Shown here piece after piece: positions 1,419 through 19,039 of a stretch of 43,594 nucleotides of DNA. The notes under the pieces were generated by a model. It did not search any database. It was not told the origin of the DNA and was given only the letters and a program-made list of their open reading frames with translations. This stretch comes from a virus (Duplodnaviria > Heunggongvirae > Uroviricota > Caudoviricetes). Numbering within the stretch: position 1 is the first letter of the stretch; each line of letters starts with the position of its first letter. A program made the position numbers and the translations under genes. Where the stretch lies: IMG/VR virus record IMGVR_UViG_2526164599_000004, one strand, 5' to 3'.

Positions 1419-2489
1419 TTATTTGATTTCAATTTTGTCCCACTCCCTGCCTCTGTCATCACGATACTGTGATGCCATGGTGTCCGACTTATGCCCGAGA
1501 AGATGTTGAGCAAATTTATCGCTTATCTGCTTCTCATAGAGTCTTGCAGACAAACTGCGCAACTCGTGAAAGGTTGGCGGATCCCCTTCGAAGGAGAGAC
1601 CTGATGCTTTTCGTGCGCGCATAAAATACCTTGATACTGTGCCGGATGAAAGCGGTTCACGACGAGTAGATGCAATTATGGTTTCTCCGCCAAGAATCTT
1701 TTTGCATTTATCAAGTGTTTCCTTCATTGATATCCCGAGAGCATCAACATGCAATGTTGTTGGGATGGCAATTTTTACGCCTGTTTTGCTTTGCTCGACA
1801 TAAAGATATCCATCTACGATATCAGACCACTTCATTTCGCATAAATCACCAACTCGCTGCCCGGTAACAACAGCCAGTTCCATTGCAAGTCTAAGCCAAC
1901 ATGGTGATGATTCTGCTGCTTGATAAATTTTCAGGTATTCGTCAGCCGTAAGTCTTGATCTCCTTACCTCTGATTTTGCAGCGCGAGTGGCTGCGACCGG
2001 GTTTGTTGTTATATGGCCTTCAGCCATAGCCTCTCGGAATGCATCGCTCAGTGTTGATCTGATTAACTTGGCTGATGCCGCCTTTCCCTCGTCTATGTAT
2101 CCATTGAGCATTGCCGCAATTTCTTTTGTGGTGATGTCTTCAAGTGGAGCATCAGGCAGACCCCTCCTTATTGCTTTAATTTTGCTCATGTAATTTATGA
2201 GTGTCTTCTGCTTGATTCCTCTGCTGGCCAGGATTTTTTCGTAGCGATCAAGCCATGAATGTAACGTAACGGAATTATCACTGTTGATTCTCGCTGTCAG
2301 AGGCTTGTGTTTGTGTCCTGAAAATAACTCAATGTTGGCCTGTATAGCTTCAGTGATTGCGATTCGCCTGTCTCGGCCTAATCCAAACTCTTTACCCGTC
2401 CTTGGGTCCCTGTAGCAGTAATATCCATTGTTTCTTATATAAAGGTTAGGGGGTAAATCCCGGCGCTCATGACTTCGCCTTCTTCCCAT
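1419..2489 (-). CDS. int: Lambda integrase (tyrosine recombinase)
   Basis: 356-aa ORF matching lambda Int as recalled; position next to att core. Confidence 0.95.
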   Translation of the reverse strand: MGRRRSHERRDLPPNLYIRNNGYYCYRDPRTGKEFGLGRDRRIAITEAIQANIELFSGHKHKPLTARINSDNSVTLHSWLDRYEKILASRGIKQKTLINYMSKIKAIRRGLPDAPLEDITTKEIAAMLNGYIDEGKAASAKLIRSTLSDAFREAMAEGHITTNPVAATRAAKSEVRRSRLTADEYLKIYQAAESSPCWLRLAMELAVVTGQRVGDLCEMKWSDIVDGYLYVEQSKTGVKIAIPTTLHVDALGISMKETLDKCKKILGGETIIASTRREPLSSGTVSRYFMRARKASGLSFEGDPPTFHELRSLSARLYEKQISDKFAQHLLGHKSDTMASQYRDDRGREWDKIEIK

Positions 2490-2685
2490 TTCTGATCCTC
2501 TTCAAAAGGCTACCTGTTATTGGTCGATTTAAGTCAACCTTTACCGCTGATTCGTGGAACAGATATTCTCTTCCATCCTTAACCGGAGGAGGGAATATCT
2601 TGCATTCGCGCACCCATCGACGAACTGTTTCAAGGCTTCTTGGGCGTCGCTGGCGAGCGTTCCACTCCTGAAGTGTCAAGTACAT
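2467..2685 (-). CDS. xis: Lambda excisionase
   Basis: 72-aa ORF (MYLTLQEWNARQRRPRSLETVRRW...) matching lambda Xis; overlaps int start as in lambda. Confidence 0.93.
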   Translation of the reverse strand: MYLTLQEWNARQRRPRSLETVRRWVRECKIFPPPVKDGREYLFHESAVKVDLNRPITGSLLKRIRNGKKAKS

Positions 2686-2724
2686 CGCAAAGTCTCCGCA
2701 ATTACACGCAAGAAAAAACCGCCA

Positions 2725-2892
2725 TCAGGCGGCTTGGTGTTCTTTCAGTTCTTCAATTCGAATATTGGTTATGTCTGCATGTGCTATCTGCGCCCATATC
2801 ATCCAGTGGTCATAGCAGTCATTGATGTTCTCTGCTTCGATAACTCTGTTGAATGGTTCTCCATTCCATTCACCTGTGACTCGGAAGTGCAT
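2725..2892 (-). CDS. Small hypothetical protein (lambda orf-55-like)
   Basis: 55-codon ORF (MHFRVTGEWNGEPFNRV...) found by hand translation, below the 60-aa ORF-track cutoff; same size and position as the small ORF after xis in lambda. Confidence 0.45.
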   Translation of the reverse strand: MHFRVTGEWNGEPFNRVIEAENINDCYDHWMIWAQIAHADITNIRIEELKEHQAA

Positions 2893-2974
2893 TTATCATC
2901 TCCATAAAACAAAACTCGCCGTAGCGAGTTCAGATATAATTTCCACCAAAGGCAGTAGTTGCTGATGCTAAGAA

Positions 2975-3403
2975 TTATTCAATATCTATTCCTGTAATAT
3001 CTTTTATCTTTTTCCTTGCAAAGCCTTTTGCTAGTGATTTTGAAACACTTATTAGTGTACTAATTCCCTCATCCTTAAAGTTTGTTTTTATAGTTTGCCA
3101 GACCTCCTTTTGACGCAAGTCAGCAATAAAATCATGCCCTCTTGCTGTCAACCTCAGTGGTACTTCGATCCAACTATATCCAACACCTTCCCCTAACTCG
3201 TTGGACATTATATGACCGAACCCAGGTTTTCCATCAACCCTGACTATTAATTCGTAGTCGCATAATAATCGCATATGGAAAATAAAATTTTGGTCATATC
3301 TATTAAAGCCATTATCCTCTAGTTCACTAAGCATCGTGTCAGGGCCATGAGTTTTTTCGAATGCGATAAGTAGATCTTTTAGATATTGCTGGTCTAATTT
3401 CAT
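2975..3403 (-). CDS. Hypothetical protein, AT-rich accessory gene (142 aa)
   Basis: Clean 142-aa ORF in the variable region after xis where lambda carries ea8.5; clearly AT-rich relative to flanking phage genes; no function recognised. Confidence 0.6.
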   Translation of the reverse strand: MKLDQQYLKDLLIAFEKTHGPDTMLSELEDNGFNRYDQNFIFHMRLLCDYELIVRVDGKPGFGHIMSNELGEGVGYSWIEVPLRLTARGHDFIADLRQKEVWQTIKTNFKDEGISTLISVSKSLAKGFARKKIKDITGIDIE

Positions 3404-3430
3404 TGCCGCCTCCGTGACATGTCACAGAGA

Positions 3431-3769
3431 TTTATATCATTAATTTTGTTTCGTGCCAGCCTTTGGTCACCCAGCATTGTGAGTCACCATTACACGGGCA
3501 TGAATTAACAGGAACTCTCTCGCCGCACTTACCGCAACGTTTTCTGCTGATCGATTTTATACGCCAGCGCACACGTGCATCATCCTGGCGGCTCAGTAAC
3601 GCGATGTACTCACCAAACTCGTAAGGCGCATGCCTGAAGCGGCGCGTGGCTCAGTTACGATCCAGCATTTCAATTTCCTGAGCATCAAGTACAAGCTCCA
3701 GCTTACGCATACCGGATGATGCTTGCTTGGCTCTCTGATCGACTTTGCGCTCTGCTGATGATTTAGCCA
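3431..3769 (-). pseudogene. Small ORF (39 codons) followed in-frame, after one TGA, by 73 more codons with a Cys-rich zinc-finger-like tail
   Basis: Hand translation: MAKSSAERKVDQRAKQASSGMRKLELVLDAQEIEMLDRN, TGA at 3650-3652, then in frame ...RKRCGKCGERVPVNSCPCNGDSQCW... to TAA at 3431-3433; the downstream part has no start codon of its own. Confidence 0.3.
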
Positions 3770-3782
3770 TTCTGCTTTTCCT

Positions 3783-3836
3783 GCATTAGGAGAAAGACAA
3801 TCATGGCGGCGCGGATACTTCCGGTATCTTTTTACT
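3783..3836 (-). repeat. Remnant of a NinX-like gene 3' end (about 50 bp homologous to 19631-19688)
   Basis: Reverse complement reads ...ATCCGCGCCGCCATGATTGTCTTTCTCCTAATGCAGGA..., nearly identical to the 3' end of the gene at 19348-19695; only about 22 codons of frame remain. Confidence 0.6.
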
Positions 3837-3964
3837 CGATATTACCCTTCAATGGCACATACAAGAAGAGAGCCATCAACAGGAGTGAGTGAGGAATCGA
3901 CAACCAGCAACGCTTAATTATCTATAGTGTCGTATTTGCTTCATAAAATATGGCGAATAACACA

Positions 3965-3998
3965 AAGCCCGCAGCAGCTCATTGTGCGGGCTTTTCTT
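3965..3998. terminator. Bidirectional intrinsic terminator hairpin
   Basis: AAGCCCGCA...TGCGGGCTT stem followed by TTTTCTT on plus and TTTGTGTT on minus; sits about 70 bp downstream of the 204-aa minus-strand gene. Confidence 0.5.
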
Positions 3999-4063
3999 AT
4001 ACATACTTCCTAGAGATAATTCTATGGAGGCATTAAATTAATACTGTCATTGGTAATATCATA

Positions 4064-4678
4064 TTATCTAAAAGTCTTTCCACTTTTAACGTCTAGGTAT
4101 ATTCTGTTCGACAACGTCATTCCTCCGCAATATGTGAAATAGATGTTTTTCCCCTTATTGCTTGATGCCATCCACCCTCCGATTTCCTTAAAGTCGCTTT
4201 CCGTGCAGACCCCTTCGTTTATTAACTTCCTAGCTGCCGAAGAAAACTCTTTTTTGTATATACGGTAGTCATCAGATCCTTTGATTAAAGTATCATCTCC
4301 GCTCGCATTTTCAGCAGGATCTGATGGCCTTTCACTGCTAAGATCACTAAGTTTAACCCATTCTGAAAACTTGCCATTGACGATTCCGTTTTTTCTTGTG
4401 CAGGATTTATTACCTTCTTTAATATATTCGCTTTCCCCTCCCACACATGAGGCTGAATATGGCTCAGTTATACGAACCCATTCACCTTTTTTTTCTAGAA
4501 AATCTACGCCTTCCCTGAAAAATAGTTTCCCAGCCACTCCGCATTTACTTGAAGGGCAGGTATGTCTTTCCGTTCGATCAACAACAACCCAAAGTCTTGA
4601 TTCATTTTTTGCCATTGCCGATGGTATTTGAGATGAGACAATTAACGTAAGCCCTAAAATTAGTATTGATTTTTTCAT
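4064..4678 (-). CDS. Secreted cysteine-rich protein of unknown function (204 aa)
   Basis: N-terminal signal peptide (MKKSILILGLTLIVSSQIPSAMA|K), several Cys, AT-rich flanks with own terminator; not a lambda gene I recognise. Confidence 0.6.
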   Translation of the reverse strand: MKKSILILGLTLIVSSQIPSAMAKNESRLWVVVDRTERHTCPSSKCGVAGKLFFREGVDFLEKKGEWVRITEPYSASCVGGESEYIKEGNKSCTRKNGIVNGKFSEWVKLSDLSSERPSDPAENASGDDTLIKGSDDYRIYKKEFSSAARKLINEGVCTESDFKEIGGWMASSNKGKNIYFTYCGGMTLSNRIYLDVKSGKTFR

Positions 4679-4814
4679 TGTAATTTCCTTTTACTTTTTA
4701 CAAAGCGTTTAATCATGGCTGATTATCTTTAAGCGTAGTAACAGCCTTGTGCGAAACATGTTACCAAATCGCCATTTCAGTGTATCCGCAGTTAGGCTGC
4801 CACTTCAAGGATTC

Positions 4815-5228
4815 CTAATTACATGGTACGTAAGCGTAAAATCCCGTTGGTTGTCGGGTAATAACTCTGATCAAATCTCCCTTGTCTTTTGCTCTTACGT
4901 ATGCAGCTCTTGTGTATTCAACCCAGGCCTCCAGTTCAGCAATACGCTTACTTCCATCCGAGATAACACCTTCTACTCACGCTGCTCGTTGAGTTTTGAT
5001 TTTTGCTGTCTCCAGCTCAACACGCAGTTTCCTCACCGTTAGCGCAATATCCTCGTTCTCCTGGTCGCGGCGTTTGATGTACTGCTGGTTTCTTTCCCGT
5101 TCATCCAGCAGTGTCAGCACAATCGATGGTGTTACCAGCTCATGGAAAAGGTCCGCGTCAAATCCCCAGTTGTCATGCATTGCCTGCTCTGCCGCTTCAC
5201 GCAGTGCCTGAGAGTGAATTACGCTCAC
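4815..5228 (-). pseudogene. ea22: ea22-like gene interrupted by an in-frame TGA (83-aa N-terminal ORF 4977-5228 plus 53 in-frame codons)
   Basis: N-terminus MS.I.SQALREAAEQAMHD.WGFDADLFHELVTPSIVL... matches lambda Ea22 as recalled; TGA at 4977-4979, then in-frame EGVISDGSKRIAELE... continuing to TAG at 4815-4817. Confidence 0.5.
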
Positions 5229-7944: not shown

Positions 7945-8045
7945 TGTCAGCGCCAATGATATAAGACAGTAATTCACCATTTGGATTGTCCGCTCCACCC
8001 AACATGTTGTTTCCTTAAGGTTCCTACACCACAAAGGGAACACTC

Positions 8046-10012
<1,967 letters not shown>

Positions 10013-10069
10013 TGACCAATAGCGGACATTAAAAATGGCGAAAAACGGCCAATAATCTTGGCGTTGACA

Positions 10070-10291: not shown

Positions 10292-10424
10292 TCTTTGGGA
10301 CTCCTGGCTGATTAAGTATGTCGATAAGGCGTTTCCATCCGTCACGTAATTTACGGGTGATTCGTTCAAGTAAAGATTCGGAAGGGCAGCCAGCAACAGG
10401 CCACCCTGCAATGGCATATTGCAT
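10260..10424 (-). CDS. cIII: Lambda CIII (FtsH inhibitor)
   Basis: Hand-translated 54 aa [54 protein letters not shown]; below the ORF-track cutoff. Confidence 0.85.
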   Translation of the reverse strand: MQYAIAGWPVAGCPSESLLERITRKLRDGWKRLIDILNQPGVPKNGSNTYGYPD

Positions 10425-10496
10425 GGTGTGCTCCTTATTTATACATAACGAAAAACGCCTCGAGTGAAGCGTTATTGGTATGCGGTAACGCAGCGC

Positions 10497-11461: not shown

Positions 11462-12043
11462 ATGAACAACTCATGGTGGCAGGAACTAATGCATTTTTTC
11501 CTGCAAGGAATGACACTTAAACAGTTGATTCATATGCTAATCATCCTGATCATATTGATTATTGTTATGCCGGTAAGCGTAAAAGAATGGATAAACCTGC
11601 ATAATCCAGAAATCCTTCCTTATTATTGGATGTATTACATCCTGTTGTTCTGCGTTAGCTATGTGCTTAACGGTGTTGTTAATTCCGCTTATCACGCTGT
11701 GACTGAAAGAATTGAGGTATCCGCTGCTCAGAAGCGCAAATCTAAAGAAGAAAAATATGTGCAAGATTTGTTTGATTCGTTAACTCTTGGAGAAAGAGCG
11801 TATTTGGCATTCGCTGTAGCCGCGAATAACCAGCTAAAGACAGAAAAGGGAAGCCCTGAAGCAATCTCATTGCTCGAAAAAGGGCTTCTTATTCGGATAC
11901 CTTCTGCTACTGGATATCCTGAAATCGACCGTTTTGTTATCCCGGAACGCTATAGAAATGAGTGCTACATTCGGTTTGCCGGGAAGGCAGACAGCCTTAT
12001 GGATGAACTTATCGCTCAGGATAAGCATGGCAAAAACAAGTAA
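11462..12043 (+). CDS. sieB: Superinfection exclusion protein B
   Basis: 193 aa with hydrophobic N-terminal region; matches lambda SieB as recalled; plus strand between ral and N as in lambda. Confidence 0.85.
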   Translation: MNNSWWQELMHFFLQGMTLKQLIHMLIILIILIIVMPVSVKEWINLHNPEILPYYWMYYILLFCVSYVLNGVVNSAYHAVTERIEVSAAQKRKSKEEKYVQDLFDSLTLGERAYLAFAVAANNQLKTEKGSPEAISLLEKGLLIRIPSATGYPEIDRFVIPERYRNECYIRFAGKADSLMDELIAQDKHGKNK

Positions 12044-12769: not shown

Positions 12770-13546
12770 CTAGGCTACCAGAGACTCAATCCAAGAGTCT
12801 CTGGTATGGAATGGCAACACTCGTGCGGTATCATTAAATAGTAGTGATAGTTGCTGTAGCTCAGGTGTTAACCCATCGCTGTCAACTATTACAAATCTAT
12901 TGTTTATGTCAGGAACGACCTGACTTAAGTCAACAATCTTCCCAACTGTTGAGTGGGCAGTATTCCATCCCTTACTGCTGGCAAGGCTTACCGTAAACCC
13001 GCGTTTTGGTGGTATTAGTCGAGACTCATTCCTTAGCGTTAACGGAACAGTAATGTTATGCCCACTAATACCTTTCACTTTTTCCTTTAAGGCTAGTCGC
13101 TTCCCAAGCCCTGCTGATTTTAAGTAACTGATTACACATTTTTCGAACTTATCGTCTTTGACCTCAGCATACCAATCAGCAGTTTGGGCGGATGCAAGAA
13201 TCCCACCACGAATAACATTTGCAGTTACCTGTCCAACGGACGACTCATCTGCCCACGCAGATATCTCTCCAGAATCATTTAATGAAATTCCTTGCGAAGC
13301 GAGTGATGACCTAATCAGATCAATTTTCTTTTTAGTCAGGTGGATGCCGCGTGATTCAATATTCATCAATGTATCGCAGTAGTCTGTAACCCTATACTGA
13401 CCACTCATCTCTTGAACGAATACACTTATCTGCTCACAATCATCGTAGTATGTGAAGGGACTAATAACGCGCAGCAACGTGTCGCTCATTGGGTGGCATT
13501 CAAACCCGAGCTTAGATATGACTGTTGAACACGTTACATTTCCCAT
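12770..13546 (-). CDS. Unknown protein B (258 aa), rexAB-position cassette
   Basis: Clean ORF co-oriented with cI; its ATG lies 13 nt inside the 3' end of the 180-aa gene; no family recognised; no obvious transmembrane helices. Confidence 0.6.
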   Translation of the reverse strand: MGNVTCSTVISKLGFECHPMSDTLLRVISPFTYYDDCEQISVFVQEMSGQYRVTDYCDTLMNIESRGIHLTKKKIDLIRSSLASQGISLNDSGEISAWADESSVGQVTANVIRGGILASAQTADWYAEVKDDKFEKCVISYLKSAGLGKRLALKEKVKGISGHNITVPLTLRNESRLIPPKRGFTVSLASSKGWNTAHSTVGKIVDLSQVVPDINNRFVIVDSDGLTPELQQLSLLFNDTARVLPFHTRDSWIESLVA

Positions 13547-14076
13547 GATAGCTGACCTGATTTATCTTGATTAGGTAAAGGTGGGCTGCCTTCATATATG
13601 ATATTAAGCGCCTCGCAAAAATAATTCCAGTAGCCAAAAAAATCATCTGGCTTGATGTTCGTTTCAAGCTTAAGTGCAATTTCTTCCCCAGCTGATTCGA
13701 AGTACATGTGATAGTGAGGACCTCGAGCCACCTCAACAAAATCTGGATGGTTCACTATAGATTTATTACGGTGTGGCTTGTTATCCGCAGGGTACGGGTC
13801 AAGCGCGTAAATGCGCCTGTCATGAAGAAACATCACAAATGAAATCTTCACTATATCCACCCCTTCAACGATAGGAGGACGCCAGTGAAGCATAAATCTT
13901 ATGCCTGTGATTGGGTTGCCAATTTCATCAAAAGCTTTGAGATCCAATTTAAACCAGATTGGGGTTCGTCCCTCACTTCCGGTCCATGTAACTCCGCTAA
14001 AAGTTACTTTTTTCAAGCGAGTAATAGCTTGGTCAACCTCTTTCTGGGTAGGCTTAAAGTCGCCTTTTTTAGCCAC
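13534..14076 (-). CDS. Unknown protein A (180 aa), rexAB-position cassette
   Basis: Clean ORF 46 bp downstream of the cI stop, same strand; no family recognised. Confidence 0.6.
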   Translation of the reverse strand: MAKKGDFKPTQKEVDQAITRLKKVTFSGVTWTGSEGRTPIWFKLDLKAFDEIGNPITGIRFMLHWRPPIVEGVDIVKISFVMFLHDRRIYALDPYPADNKPHRNKSIVNHPDFVEVARGPHYHMYFESAGEEIALKLETNIKPDDFFGYWNYFCEALNIIYEGSPPLPNQDKSGQLSWEM

Positions 14077-14122: not shown

Positions 14123-14782
14123 TCACCCAAACGTCTCTTCAGGCCACTGACTAGCGATAACTTTCCCCACAACGGAACAACTCTCATTGCATGGGATCAT
14201 TGGGTATTGTGGGTTTAGTGGCTGTAGAAACACCTGACCGCTATCCCTGATCAGTTTCTTGAAGGTAAACTCATCACCACCAAGTCTGGCTATACAGAAA
14301 TCGCCTGGCTCAACAGCCTGCTCAGGGTCAACCAGAATTAACATCCCGTCAGGAAAGCTGGGCTTGGAACCTGTTGGTGCGGTCATTGAGTTACCTTCAA
14401 CCTCAAGCCAGAATGCAGAGTCACTGGCTTTTTTGGTTGTGCTTACCAATCTCTCCGCATCGCCTTTGGTAAAGGTTCTGAGTTCTGGAGAGAACATCCC
14501 AGCCTGAACATGAGAAAAAACAGGGTACTCATATTGTTTTTTAACTGGGGCCGATGAGTATTCGCCAACAGGTGAAAATGTCCCGTCGTGGTTGAATGAT
14601 ATGTTATCAATACCAAGGTATTTAAACACCACACCAATATCACTAAGAGATGGATGACGAGATCCGCGCAACCAGTGTCCAATCCCACCCTGCGTCATAC
14701 CTAGCTCTTCGGCTAACTTCTCTTGAGTTATGCCGAGCTCTTTCATTCTGGATCTAGCCAGTTCATACCATTTCATTTTCAT
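14123..14782 (-). CDS. cI: CI-type repressor, hybrid: novel N-terminal HTH domain plus lambda CI C-terminal domain
   Basis: C-terminal about 135 aa (...[28 protein letters not shown]...[14 protein letters not shown]) matches lambda CI; N-terminal about 85 aa does not; start chosen at MKMKWYEL with AAGGA ribosome-binding site. Confidence 0.85.
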
Positions 14783-14892
14783 GTCCTTATTATTACGCTT
14801 TGTACTGGAACCATCCATGCACAATGTGTATTTTTACTTGTATTCGTAAAGTACATATTGTATTTTTTATTCGTGTTTACTATGGAGGGCAT
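14783..14892. promoter_or_regulatory. OR region with divergent pRM/pR (operator block about 14836-14863)
   Basis: Intergenic between divergent cI and cro; near-palindromic TACA/TGTA elements shared with OL; exact operators and promoter hexamers not resolved. Confidence 0.5.
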
Positions 14893-17825: not shown

Positions 17826-18716
17826 TCAGGCTGCCAGATCATCGTTTCCGATGGAAGCATAATAAGCTTTTTCTGCTTCTGCCGGTGGGATATGGCCCAG
17901 CCTTTCCAGCAATCGTCGATTGTTATACCAGTCCACCCACGTGAGTGTGGCCAGCTCCACTTCTGTCCGGTTTTTCCAGCTCTTACGGTGTATTACCTCC
18001 GCTTTGTAAAGGCCATTGATGCTCTCCGCCATCGCGTTGTCATACGAGTCACCAGTACTTCCTGTTGATGCCAGTAATCCGGCTTCCTTAAGCCGCTGTG
18101 TGTAGGCCAGCGATACATACTGAGAACCTTTATCACTGTGATGGACTGTGCCGGACGGTCGACGGGCCCATAACGCCTGCTCCAGAGCATCCAGCACGAA
18201 TGTCGTTTCCATAGACGATGAGACCCGCCACCCCACGATGTATCCGGCAAACACATCAATGATGAACGCCACATAGACGACCCCCTGCCATGTGCTGACG
18301 TAAGTAAAATCAGCCACCCACAACTGGTCAGGACGTTCTGCCACAAACTGACGGTTTACGCGGTCGCCTGCGGCAACGGCTTTCCGGCTGACGGTAGTGC
18401 GGACCTTTTTACCCCGGAGAACACCGGCAAGTCCCATAACCGCCATGAGGCGCGCCACTGTACATCTGGCTACCCTGATTCCTTCCCGTAACAACTGACG
18501 CCAGACTTTACGCACACCGTATACCTGATGATTCCCATCGTATACGCGCAGTATCTCTTTCTTCAGCCAGTCATCGCGCTGCGCACGGGCACTGCGTTTA
18601 TCAGGATGATGTCGCTGTTGCTGACAGTGGTAATACGTTGACGGGGCAATATGTAGTTCACTGCATACCGGTCCGACCCCGTACAGCTTACGCAGCTTAT
18701 CCAGCAGTGGCATCAC
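17826..18716 (-). CDS. IS629 transposase OrfB
   Basis: 296 aa, integrase catalytic core; recalled as IS629/IS1203 OrfB. Confidence 0.85.
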
Positions 18717-19039
18717 TTTTTCCAGAGGCGGTCGAACTCCGCCTTCGCAAAATAAGCGGAAGCCTGGCGAAGGATATCGTTACTGCGGCGCAGTTCACGA
18801 TTTTCACGTTCCAGCTCTTTCAGACGCTGACGTTCAGCGGTGGTGAGCCCGCCATCACCGCCTCCGGTATCCCGCTCATGCTGGCGTACCCAGACACGCA
18901 GAGTCTCCGGTGTACAGTCAATCTTTGGGGCAATGGAACAAATTGCCGCCCACTGTGAGTCATATTCGCCCTGACTTTCCAGAACCATACGAATCGCCCT
19001 CTGACGGACTTCGGGGGAAAAACGAGTATTTTTAGTCAT
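18713..19039 (-). CDS. IS629 OrfA (HTH)
   Basis: 108 aa [26 protein letters not shown]...; lies upstream of and overlapping orfB, the usual IS3-family arrangement. Confidence 0.85.

Follow-up and report, generated by a model that had tools for sequence, protein, structure and literature searches.

The open reading frame at positions 2975-3403 of the window, by which we mean the whole 43,594-nucleotide stretch of viral DNA analyzed here, encodes a protein of the DUF2513 family. It is best read as a horizontally shuffled cassette at the variable, xis-proximal end of the exo-xis region, with a small, soluble and non-enzymatic product. More specifically, we propose, with a probability of about 0.5, that it is a self-contained, AT-rich accessory cassette, that its product is a winged-helix protein of the binding type, expressed early from pL and possibly from a promoter of its own, and that its role is regulatory and not catalytic. 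The gene itself is already catalogued and is not new, as it belongs to a known Pfam and PHROG family and carries a RefSeq name. As it stands, it is an ordinary accessory gene that annotation pipelines have already labeled.

The window begins in E. coli ybhC and continues into a lambda-type prophage integrated beside ybhC. In blastn comparisons, the prophage region shares 99.8% identity with the E. coli ATCC 8739 prophage and 97.9% with Chlobot, a plaque-isolated phage. The integration end of the prophage is organized as follows.

1419-2489, minus strand: int (ORF list and annotation)
2467-2685, minus strand: xis (ORF list and annotation)
2725-2892, minus strand: lambda orf55, 55 aa (ORF list and annotation)
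2906-2931, minus strand: terminator-like hairpin, GAACTCGC-TACG-GCGAGTT and then TTGTTTT, 44 nt after the stop codon of the DUF2513 gene (terminator scan)
2941-4929, minus strand: mosaic substitution relative to lambda, 1,989 bp (blastn against lambda J02459, Chlobot and ATCC 8739; annotations)
2975-3403, minus strand: coding sequence of the DUF2513 family, 142 aa (ORF list, Pfam, PHROG, RefSeq identity, AlphaFold, GC)
3432-3770, minus strand: phrog_536 'transcriptional regulator' gene with a CxxC...CxC C-terminus (PHROG match; pseudogene in RefSeq)

The reading frame opens with ATG, closes with TAA and comprises 142 codons, and the ORF list holds no overlapping frame of 40 aa or more on the opposite strand. 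An earlier note on this DNA had described a clean ORF with markedly low GC compared with int and xis, and both descriptions are borne out. On the calculation that the note had named as a check, the GC content is 36.1% (GC3 30.8%), against 45.1% for int, 47.9% for xis, 44.6% for orf55 and 50.8% for the window, which places the ORF within the lowest 1.6% of all 429-nt segments window-wide. It is not the lowest spot: the minimum of 29% lies near 22 kb in a prophage-borne porin gene (21059-22141, minus strand; Porin_1, E 3e-153). Homologues of the DUF2513 gene have a GC content of 36-43%, even in Serratia and Enterobacter; as judged from base composition, AT-richness moves together with the gene.

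Across Enterobacterales, homologues occur at 47-96% identity. Comparison of the ORF with the Serratia, Enterobacter and Yersinia copies gives a dN of 0.15-0.41 at saturated dS; among close E. coli alleles dN/dS is about 0.7, a value computed from no more than some 11 substitutions. All 33 complete E. coli-type copies in IMG/VR have the gene intact, and the RefSeq genomes that were inspected likewise list it as intact. ORF 2975-3403 is a real, conserved gene under purifying selection and not a chance ORF.

Homology to lambda (J02459, blastn) extends from the att core to window position 2940 (lambda 29333) and resumes at 4930, which corresponds to lambda 30094 inside ea22, so that the DUF2513 ORF belongs to a mosaic substitution. 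In lambda terms, the 1,989 bp replace 29334-30093, i.e., ea8.5 and the 3' part of ea22, and they bring in the DUF2513 gene, the phrog_536 gene, a UmuD-like remnant and a gene for a 204-aa signal-peptide protein. The earlier note had seen a one-for-one replacement of ea8.5 next to xis. The exchange is in fact larger, since it also takes the 3' part of ea22 and introduces three more items, and 'next to xis' is inexact because the 55-aa orf55 and the hairpin intervene. Its placement of the ORF in a variable slot of lambdoid phages was right: of the 238 phage records in which the xis-orf55 flank occurs, 237 diverge at around window positions 2936-2940, and the left junction of the substitution is thus a general mosaic boundary. 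The xis-proximal end of the exo-xis region has been described as a variable gene set downstream of ea22 that is transcribed early from pL (PMC8614690), and the DUF2513 gene is co-oriented with this early-left operon. In ATCC 8739, the copy of the module carries an IS1 insertion. The 204-aa protein of the module (4064-4678, minus strand; GC 39%) has an N-terminal signal peptide, a weak SH3_3 match and a match to phrog_8310.

The assignment to the DUF2513 family is firm. The protein matches Pfam PF10711 over profile positions 1-100 of 100 with 42.9 bits (gathering cut-off 29.6; E 6.8e-11) and PHROG 585, a family listed as of unknown function, with an E-value of 2.3e-34. An identical protein in RefSeq, WP_000762730.1, is named 'DUF2513 domain-containing protein', and the product of the annotated ATCC 8739 gene is 100% identical as well. 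The label 'function unknown' given by the earlier note consequently holds for the biochemistry only, given the family membership and the RefSeq name. Neither of the two results that the note had named as refuting turned up: the GC is deviant, and the protein has no homology to a phage core protein. Nothing sets the window protein apart from DUF2513/PHROG 585 and the related family YjcQ (PF09639): the full-length match, the size class of about 110-150 aa, the winged-helix fold and the habitat of prophages, plasmids and genomic islands are all shared.

The AlphaFold model (pLDDT 93.3) consists of three helices, four strands and then three further helices. It predicts a winged helix-turn-helix core in residues 1-86, the wing of which is unusually long, and three conserved helices behind this core, so that the winged helix-turn-helix of the DUF2513 family is present in the window protein. 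In the enterobacterial subfamily, conservation is highest in helix 1, helix 3 (FxFHMRLLxD), the PLRLT strand, the GHDF start of helix 4 and helix 5, and lowest in helix 2 and in wing residues 62-81, the latter also showing indels. In the wider family, R84 is invariant and Y7, L12, H43, G63, T86 and G89 are nearly so. Searches for a more telling relative gave no match in NCBIfam or in a PDB sequence search, and Foldseek against PDB and BFVD returned only weak generic winged-helix matches and unnamed viral proteins. No enzyme, toxin or defence model matches the protein, and Rfam has nothing in or near the ORF. A literature search on DUF2513/PF10711, IPR019650, YjcQ, phrog_585 and the RefSeq accession found no functional study; the one paper found to mention the family employs a member as a PCR marker. 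The idea that a C-terminal helix acts as a membrane-active amphipathic peptide was dropped as unsupported, the hydrophobic moment being only moderate (0.36-0.45).

Of 5,426 complete E. coli genomes, 183 have the gene and 130 the whole module; among the 3,172 E. coli genomes with a match to some part of 2600-5000, the majority have the xis-orf55 flank alone. Among the 238 phage records sharing this flank, a single one has the DUF2513 gene. By tblastn, the protein is found in only three of 50,697 phage records, none of which is lambda, 434, HK022 or an Stx phage; plaque-isolated Chlobot does carry the gene. The copies that reside on large plasmids are parts of the same prophage that were captured by IS26. 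An exhaustive profile search returned 1,490 cluster representatives at E <= 1e-3, and a scan of one genome per species gave 62 loci in Proteobacteria, Bacteroidota, Bacillota, Nitrospirota, Gemmatimonadota, Verrucomicrobiota and others. In most of the 61 loci with a callable ORF, the product has about 110-150 aa.

The genomic contexts of the homologues are diverse. One Serratia homologue lies near int between unrelated genes, a second Serratia prophage has it after DnaB in a nin-like region, and in a Klebsiella phage it stands between the lysis genes and the small terminase gene. Homologues thus occupy three accessory-gene positions in lambdoid phages. No neighbor family recurs in more than four of the 61 loci, and by Pfam content, 139 neighbors are genes of the phage-late or nin type where the locus is enterobacterial and housekeeping genes in other loci. 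A conserved partner gene was rejected because the neighbors do not cluster and their Pfam content is heterogeneous; the DUF2513 gene moves alone between prophage contexts. On the 5.9-kb Aeromonas veronii plasmid pAV1812-1 (locus L012, 2534-3405), the DUF2513 gene overlaps the end of a RelE/ParE toxin gene by 14 nt, and a TraY-like ribbon-helix-helix gene precedes the toxin gene; the DUF2513 gene is here probably co-transcribed with the toxin-antitoxin pair.

Three elements lie just upstream of the start codon.

3409-3413, minus strand: strong Shine-Dalgarno sequence GGAGG, 5 nt before the ATG (read from the sequence)
3414-3425, no strand assigned: perfect 12-bp palindrome GTGACATGTCAC between the phrog_536 stop codon and the Shine-Dalgarno sequence
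3431-3459, minus strand: candidate sigma-70 promoter with -35 CTGGCA (3459-3454), a 17-nt spacer and an extended -10 TGaTATAAA (3439-3431)

The GGAG of the Shine-Dalgarno sequence is kept in the Serratia, Enterobacter and Yersinia loci. The candidate promoter reaches into the end of phrog_536 and covers its final codons and its stop codon. It is weak, with four of six matches in the -35 and five of six in the -10 hexamer, and was missed by a standard promoter scan, which returned nothing on the minus strand. In a dedicated scan with criteria set post hoc, the two strands of the window together contain only two such sites. The -35, the 17-nt spacing and the -10 are kept in five loci (L003, L022, L023, L141 and L171), the -10 reading TATAAA or TATAGT in the first three. 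Since the hexamers overlap the GWHETKL end of phrog_536 and its stop codon, coding constraint may explain their conservation. A promoter that is weak, identified post hoc and confounded by coding in its conservation counts against the part of our proposal in which the gene is a self-promoted unit of the moron type. Downstream of the gene, the hairpin at 2906-2931 lies within the lambda-shared segment ending at 2940; Serratia homologues have a different strong terminator in the same relative place.

A second DUF2513 subgroup, about 50% identical (L027, L029, L030, L032, L033 and L084), shares a different conserved stretch of some 75 nt on the 5' side of the gene, which includes the inverted repeat GGCATTCACTGAGTGCC and an extended -10-like motif, TGnGATAAT. 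At two of these loci, the stretch directly follows an upstream terminator. This conserved region suggests that DUF2513 genes travel with their own expression signals.

The upstream phrog_536 gene has a different fate from its neighbor. It is inactivated here by a TGC-to-TGA nonsense mutation at codon 40, which is also found in ATCC 8739, and premature stops occur in about half of the E. coli-type IMG/VR copies; according to a translation comparison, it is intact in Chlobot and in plasmid pMCR10_SCLZS19. The gene precedes DUF2513 in E. coli, in Yersinia and in two IMG/VR lineages. In Serratia and Enterobacter, the sequence upstream of the -35 is unrelated and only the last nine or so phrog_536 codons remain, the two junctions lying within 3 nt of each other.

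The palindrome GTGACATGTCAC is single in the window at up to one mismatch. Its core TGACATGTCA is kept with no or one change in Serratia L003, Enterobacter L022 and Yersinia L023, loci that were found via the protein. Folded as RNA, it grows into an 8-bp stem spanning 3410-3429, in which the GGAG of the Shine-Dalgarno sequence is paired; a regulatory hairpin sequestering this site was discarded, as the fold is not significant (z = -1.7). Across viral contigs, the 3' end of phrog_536 (GWHxxKL and stop), the palindrome TGACATGTCAC and the GGAG (window 3410-3460) precede different small genes, namely DUF2513 in 41 contigs and other ORFs of 70-81 aa in at least seven (IMG/VR; L114, L090, L158, L087 and others). 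An upstream palindrome, as expected of the operator of a MarR/PadR-type regulator, thus exists but also occurs in loci without DUF2513, and the palindrome as the protein's own operator is rejected as stated. With at least seven loci having it before unrelated genes, it is not specific to DUF2513: the phrog_536 end, palindrome and GGAG together appear to be a shared linker or cargo slot and not a DUF2513-specific operator. This element may serve as a cargo slot or as a recombination linker, and its conservation could guide the discovery of further accessory genes.

From these elements we derive the following model for the accessory cassette. After infection or induction, the DUF2513 gene would be read within the N-antiterminated pL transcript. 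Transcription could in addition start at the weak extended -10 candidate promoter embedded in the 3' end of phrog_536 and stop at the hairpin 2906-2931, in which case the gene would form a moron-type unit. By analogy with winged-helix proteins of the PadR/MarR type, the protein would act by binding, probably as a dimer, and its target may be either nucleic acid or a partner protein. Helix 3 (FxFHMRLL), the PLRLT strand and the GHDF helix start would make up the binding surface, the specificity of which could be tuned by the variable wing. The expected outcome would be regulatory, directed at phage development or at the physiology of the host in the manner of other exo-xis proteins, and neither catalytic nor toxic. 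The resemblance to PadR/MarR/HxlR-type regulators is confined to the fold. The window protein has no match to these sequence families, its winged helix-turn-helix is acidic, and its wing is much longer and carries a variable insertion. With pI values of 5.8 for the whole protein, 4.7 for the winged-helix part and 9.5 for the C-terminal helices, only the latter are basic; an acidic winged helix is unusual for a DNA-binding surface and counts against our proposal.

With the genes of the lambdoid exo-xis early proteins, the window gene shares genomic slot and orientation. Exo-xis proteins are small, non-essential and early, and are thought to modulate the lysis-lysogeny decision (PMC8614690, PMC3824215); Phi24B gp05, encoded in the same variable slot, is also a predicted winged helix-turn-helix protein (PMC8614690). 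There is, however, no sequence relationship between the exo-xis proteins of lambda and the window protein, lambda 29334-30093 being replaced outright. In particular, Ea8.5, with its hybrid homeodomain/zinc-finger fold, is no homologue: blastn leaves a gap between 2940 and 4930, tblastn is blank in lambda records and the predicted fold is a winged helix-turn-helix.

Morons are independent promoter-gene-terminator units of lambdoid phages, such as bor and lom. The window gene is moron-like in its deviant base composition, in the terminator directly downstream and the candidate promoter directly upstream, and in its presence or absence among otherwise near-identical phages. Unlike a simple moron, it is also placed for reading from pL.

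The earlier note had remarked that isolated AT-rich genes next to the integration module often carry accessory or defence functions. The accessory half of this remark fits an AT-rich accessory gene in a variable slot; for the defence half we found no direct support, the protein having neither a PADLOC or NCBIfam match nor an effector domain. A few distant relatives join the same domain to defence effectors. About ten of the best 150 family representatives are longer than the stand-alone form. P0140 joins DUF2513 to a TIR domain of the CAP12/Pycsar type (Pfam 7.7e-21; PADLOC PDC-S35, PycTIR), P0242 to TIR_2 (PADLOC PDC-S66, 1.8e-57; ThsB, 1.8e-35) and P0209 to a PDC-S60-like domain, while P0127, P0206 and P0214 share a C-terminal domain that matches AbiTi and PDC-M14B weakly (E 3e-4 to 5e-7). 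A search with P0140 showed that its TIR type is combined with many alternative N-terminal domains, DUF2513 being among them in seven clusters. The DUF2513 domain can thus form the front end of immune effectors. These single-protein effectors with swappable N-terminal sensors are about 40% identical to the window protein in the shared domain, which they carry N-terminally, whereas the window protein stops after its three C-terminal helices. The fusions do not by themselves establish the stand-alone prophage protein as a defence protein. Together with the moron-like layout, the fusions to TIR and AbiTi-like effectors are indirect hints of defence carriage.

A first alternative, which we consider unlikely, takes the gene as a lysogen-expressed defence or superinfection-exclusion factor. 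Transcribed from its own promoter, it would recognize a component of an incoming phage or plasmid with its wing and block it either through binding alone or with the help of a recruited host factor. Apart from the seven DUF2513-TIR clusters and the other fusions, such a role would suit the deviant GC, the candidate promoter and the terminator, the use of three different accessory positions whatever the timing of the operon, the hypervariable wing, and a gene that stays intact in prophages while phrog_536 decays. Against it stand the searches for defence components. The window protein matches no family in PADLOC-DB v2 at E <= 1, it ends at residue 142 with helices only and thus without a C-terminal effector domain, and its neighbors are the phrog_536 pseudogene and orf55, so that no effector gene adjoins it, in keeping with the lack of a conserved effector neighbor across loci. 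Furthermore, all DUF2513 fusions found are from environmental metagenome contigs and not from E. coli, the promoter is only a candidate, and the gene also lies inside the lytic pL operon. In one Serratia prophage (L008, 5064-5981), a 305-aa protein is encoded 19 nt upstream of the DUF2513 homologue and has a weak match (E 1e-4) to the PADLOC CBASS TIR-effector model; given this match, the two could be a split sensor-effector pair.

Next in rank, and likewise improbable, is a role in early counter-defence or host takeover from pL, in which an effector-less sensor copy or general binder titrates or masks a cue of host immunity or inhibits a host protein. The position in the early-left operon, as for Gam, Ral and Kil, the small acidic product and the use of the same domain as N-terminal module of immune effectors would all agree with it. 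So would the arrangement around phrog_536: group A copies follow this putative regulator, its 3' linker precedes different small cargo genes elsewhere, and the whole loosely recalls regulator-linked variable anti-defence loci. Yet we found no DUF2513-effector fusion in Enterobacterales for such a protein to oppose, and a more specific variant, a decoy for E. coli DUF2513-TIR proteins, found no support as all fusions come from metagenome contigs. Homologues also reside in late-operon gaps and on small plasmids beside toxin-antitoxin genes, which is a misfit with a dedicated early role, and structure searches showed no resemblance to any known anti-defence protein.

A more far-reaching synthesis of these two readings is speculative and doubtful. 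It would make the DUF2513 winged helix a recognition module for a phage or plasmid cue that has been wired to TIR and AbiTi-like killing domains in soil bacteria and that, in enterobacterial prophages, persists as an effector-less, self-promoted cassette acting as a binding-only superinfection-exclusion or counter-defence factor; the promoter-palindrome-Shine-Dalgarno linker after phrog_536 would mark a cargo slot under one regulator. If DUF2513 turned out to act as a sensor or decoy in the conflict between phage and host, the gene would be of modest importance, given that about 1,500 clusters of the family, formed at 50% identity, are spread over mobile elements from many phyla and that the E. 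coli lambda-type copy is the member easiest to test genetically. That the gene is a functionless passenger, a decaying remnant riding on the mosaic module, is very improbable: the surrounding module does decay (phrog_536 nonsense, UmuD-like fragment, IS1 in ATCC 8739) and the close E. coli alleles show a dN/dS near 0.7 over their few substitutions, but the gene is intact in 33 of 33 complete IMG/VR copies and in the inspected RefSeq genomes, is conserved across genera with low dN at saturated dS, has a confidently predicted fold and is carried by a plaque-isolated phage. The accessory cassette with a binding-type, regulatory product hence remains our preferred reading.

Several other features of the window deserve mention. 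A 258-aa DUF1828 protein and a 180-aa DUF6978-like protein are encoded at 12770-14076 (minus strand), on the same strand as the putative cI (14123-14824) and beside it, in the position of lambda rexAB. They match the PADLOC candidates PDC-M24B (E 5e-7) and PDC-M24A (E 4e-4), respectively, and this pair is a more plausible candidate for lysogen-expressed defence than the DUF2513 gene. A SieB superinfection-exclusion homologue (PF14163, E 7e-25) is located at 11462-12043. The gam region is interrupted by a 2,125-bp IS21-family element (7945-10069), absent from lambda, Chlobot and the ATCC 8739 copy, that encodes IstA (390 aa, 8046-9218) and IstB (265 aa, 9215-10012; PF01695, E 1e-87); a further match of IstB, to DrmD in PADLOC, probably reflects no more than AAA+ similarity. 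Two IS3-family copies (17826-19039 and 23121-24334) with ORFs of 108 and 296 aa each contain an ALIL frameshift pseudoknot (Rfam RF01497, 116 bits; 18642-18758 and 23937-24053). A low-GC DUF1398 gene lies at 26744-27169, and the cIII thermoregulator RNA (RF01804) is present at 10379-10437.
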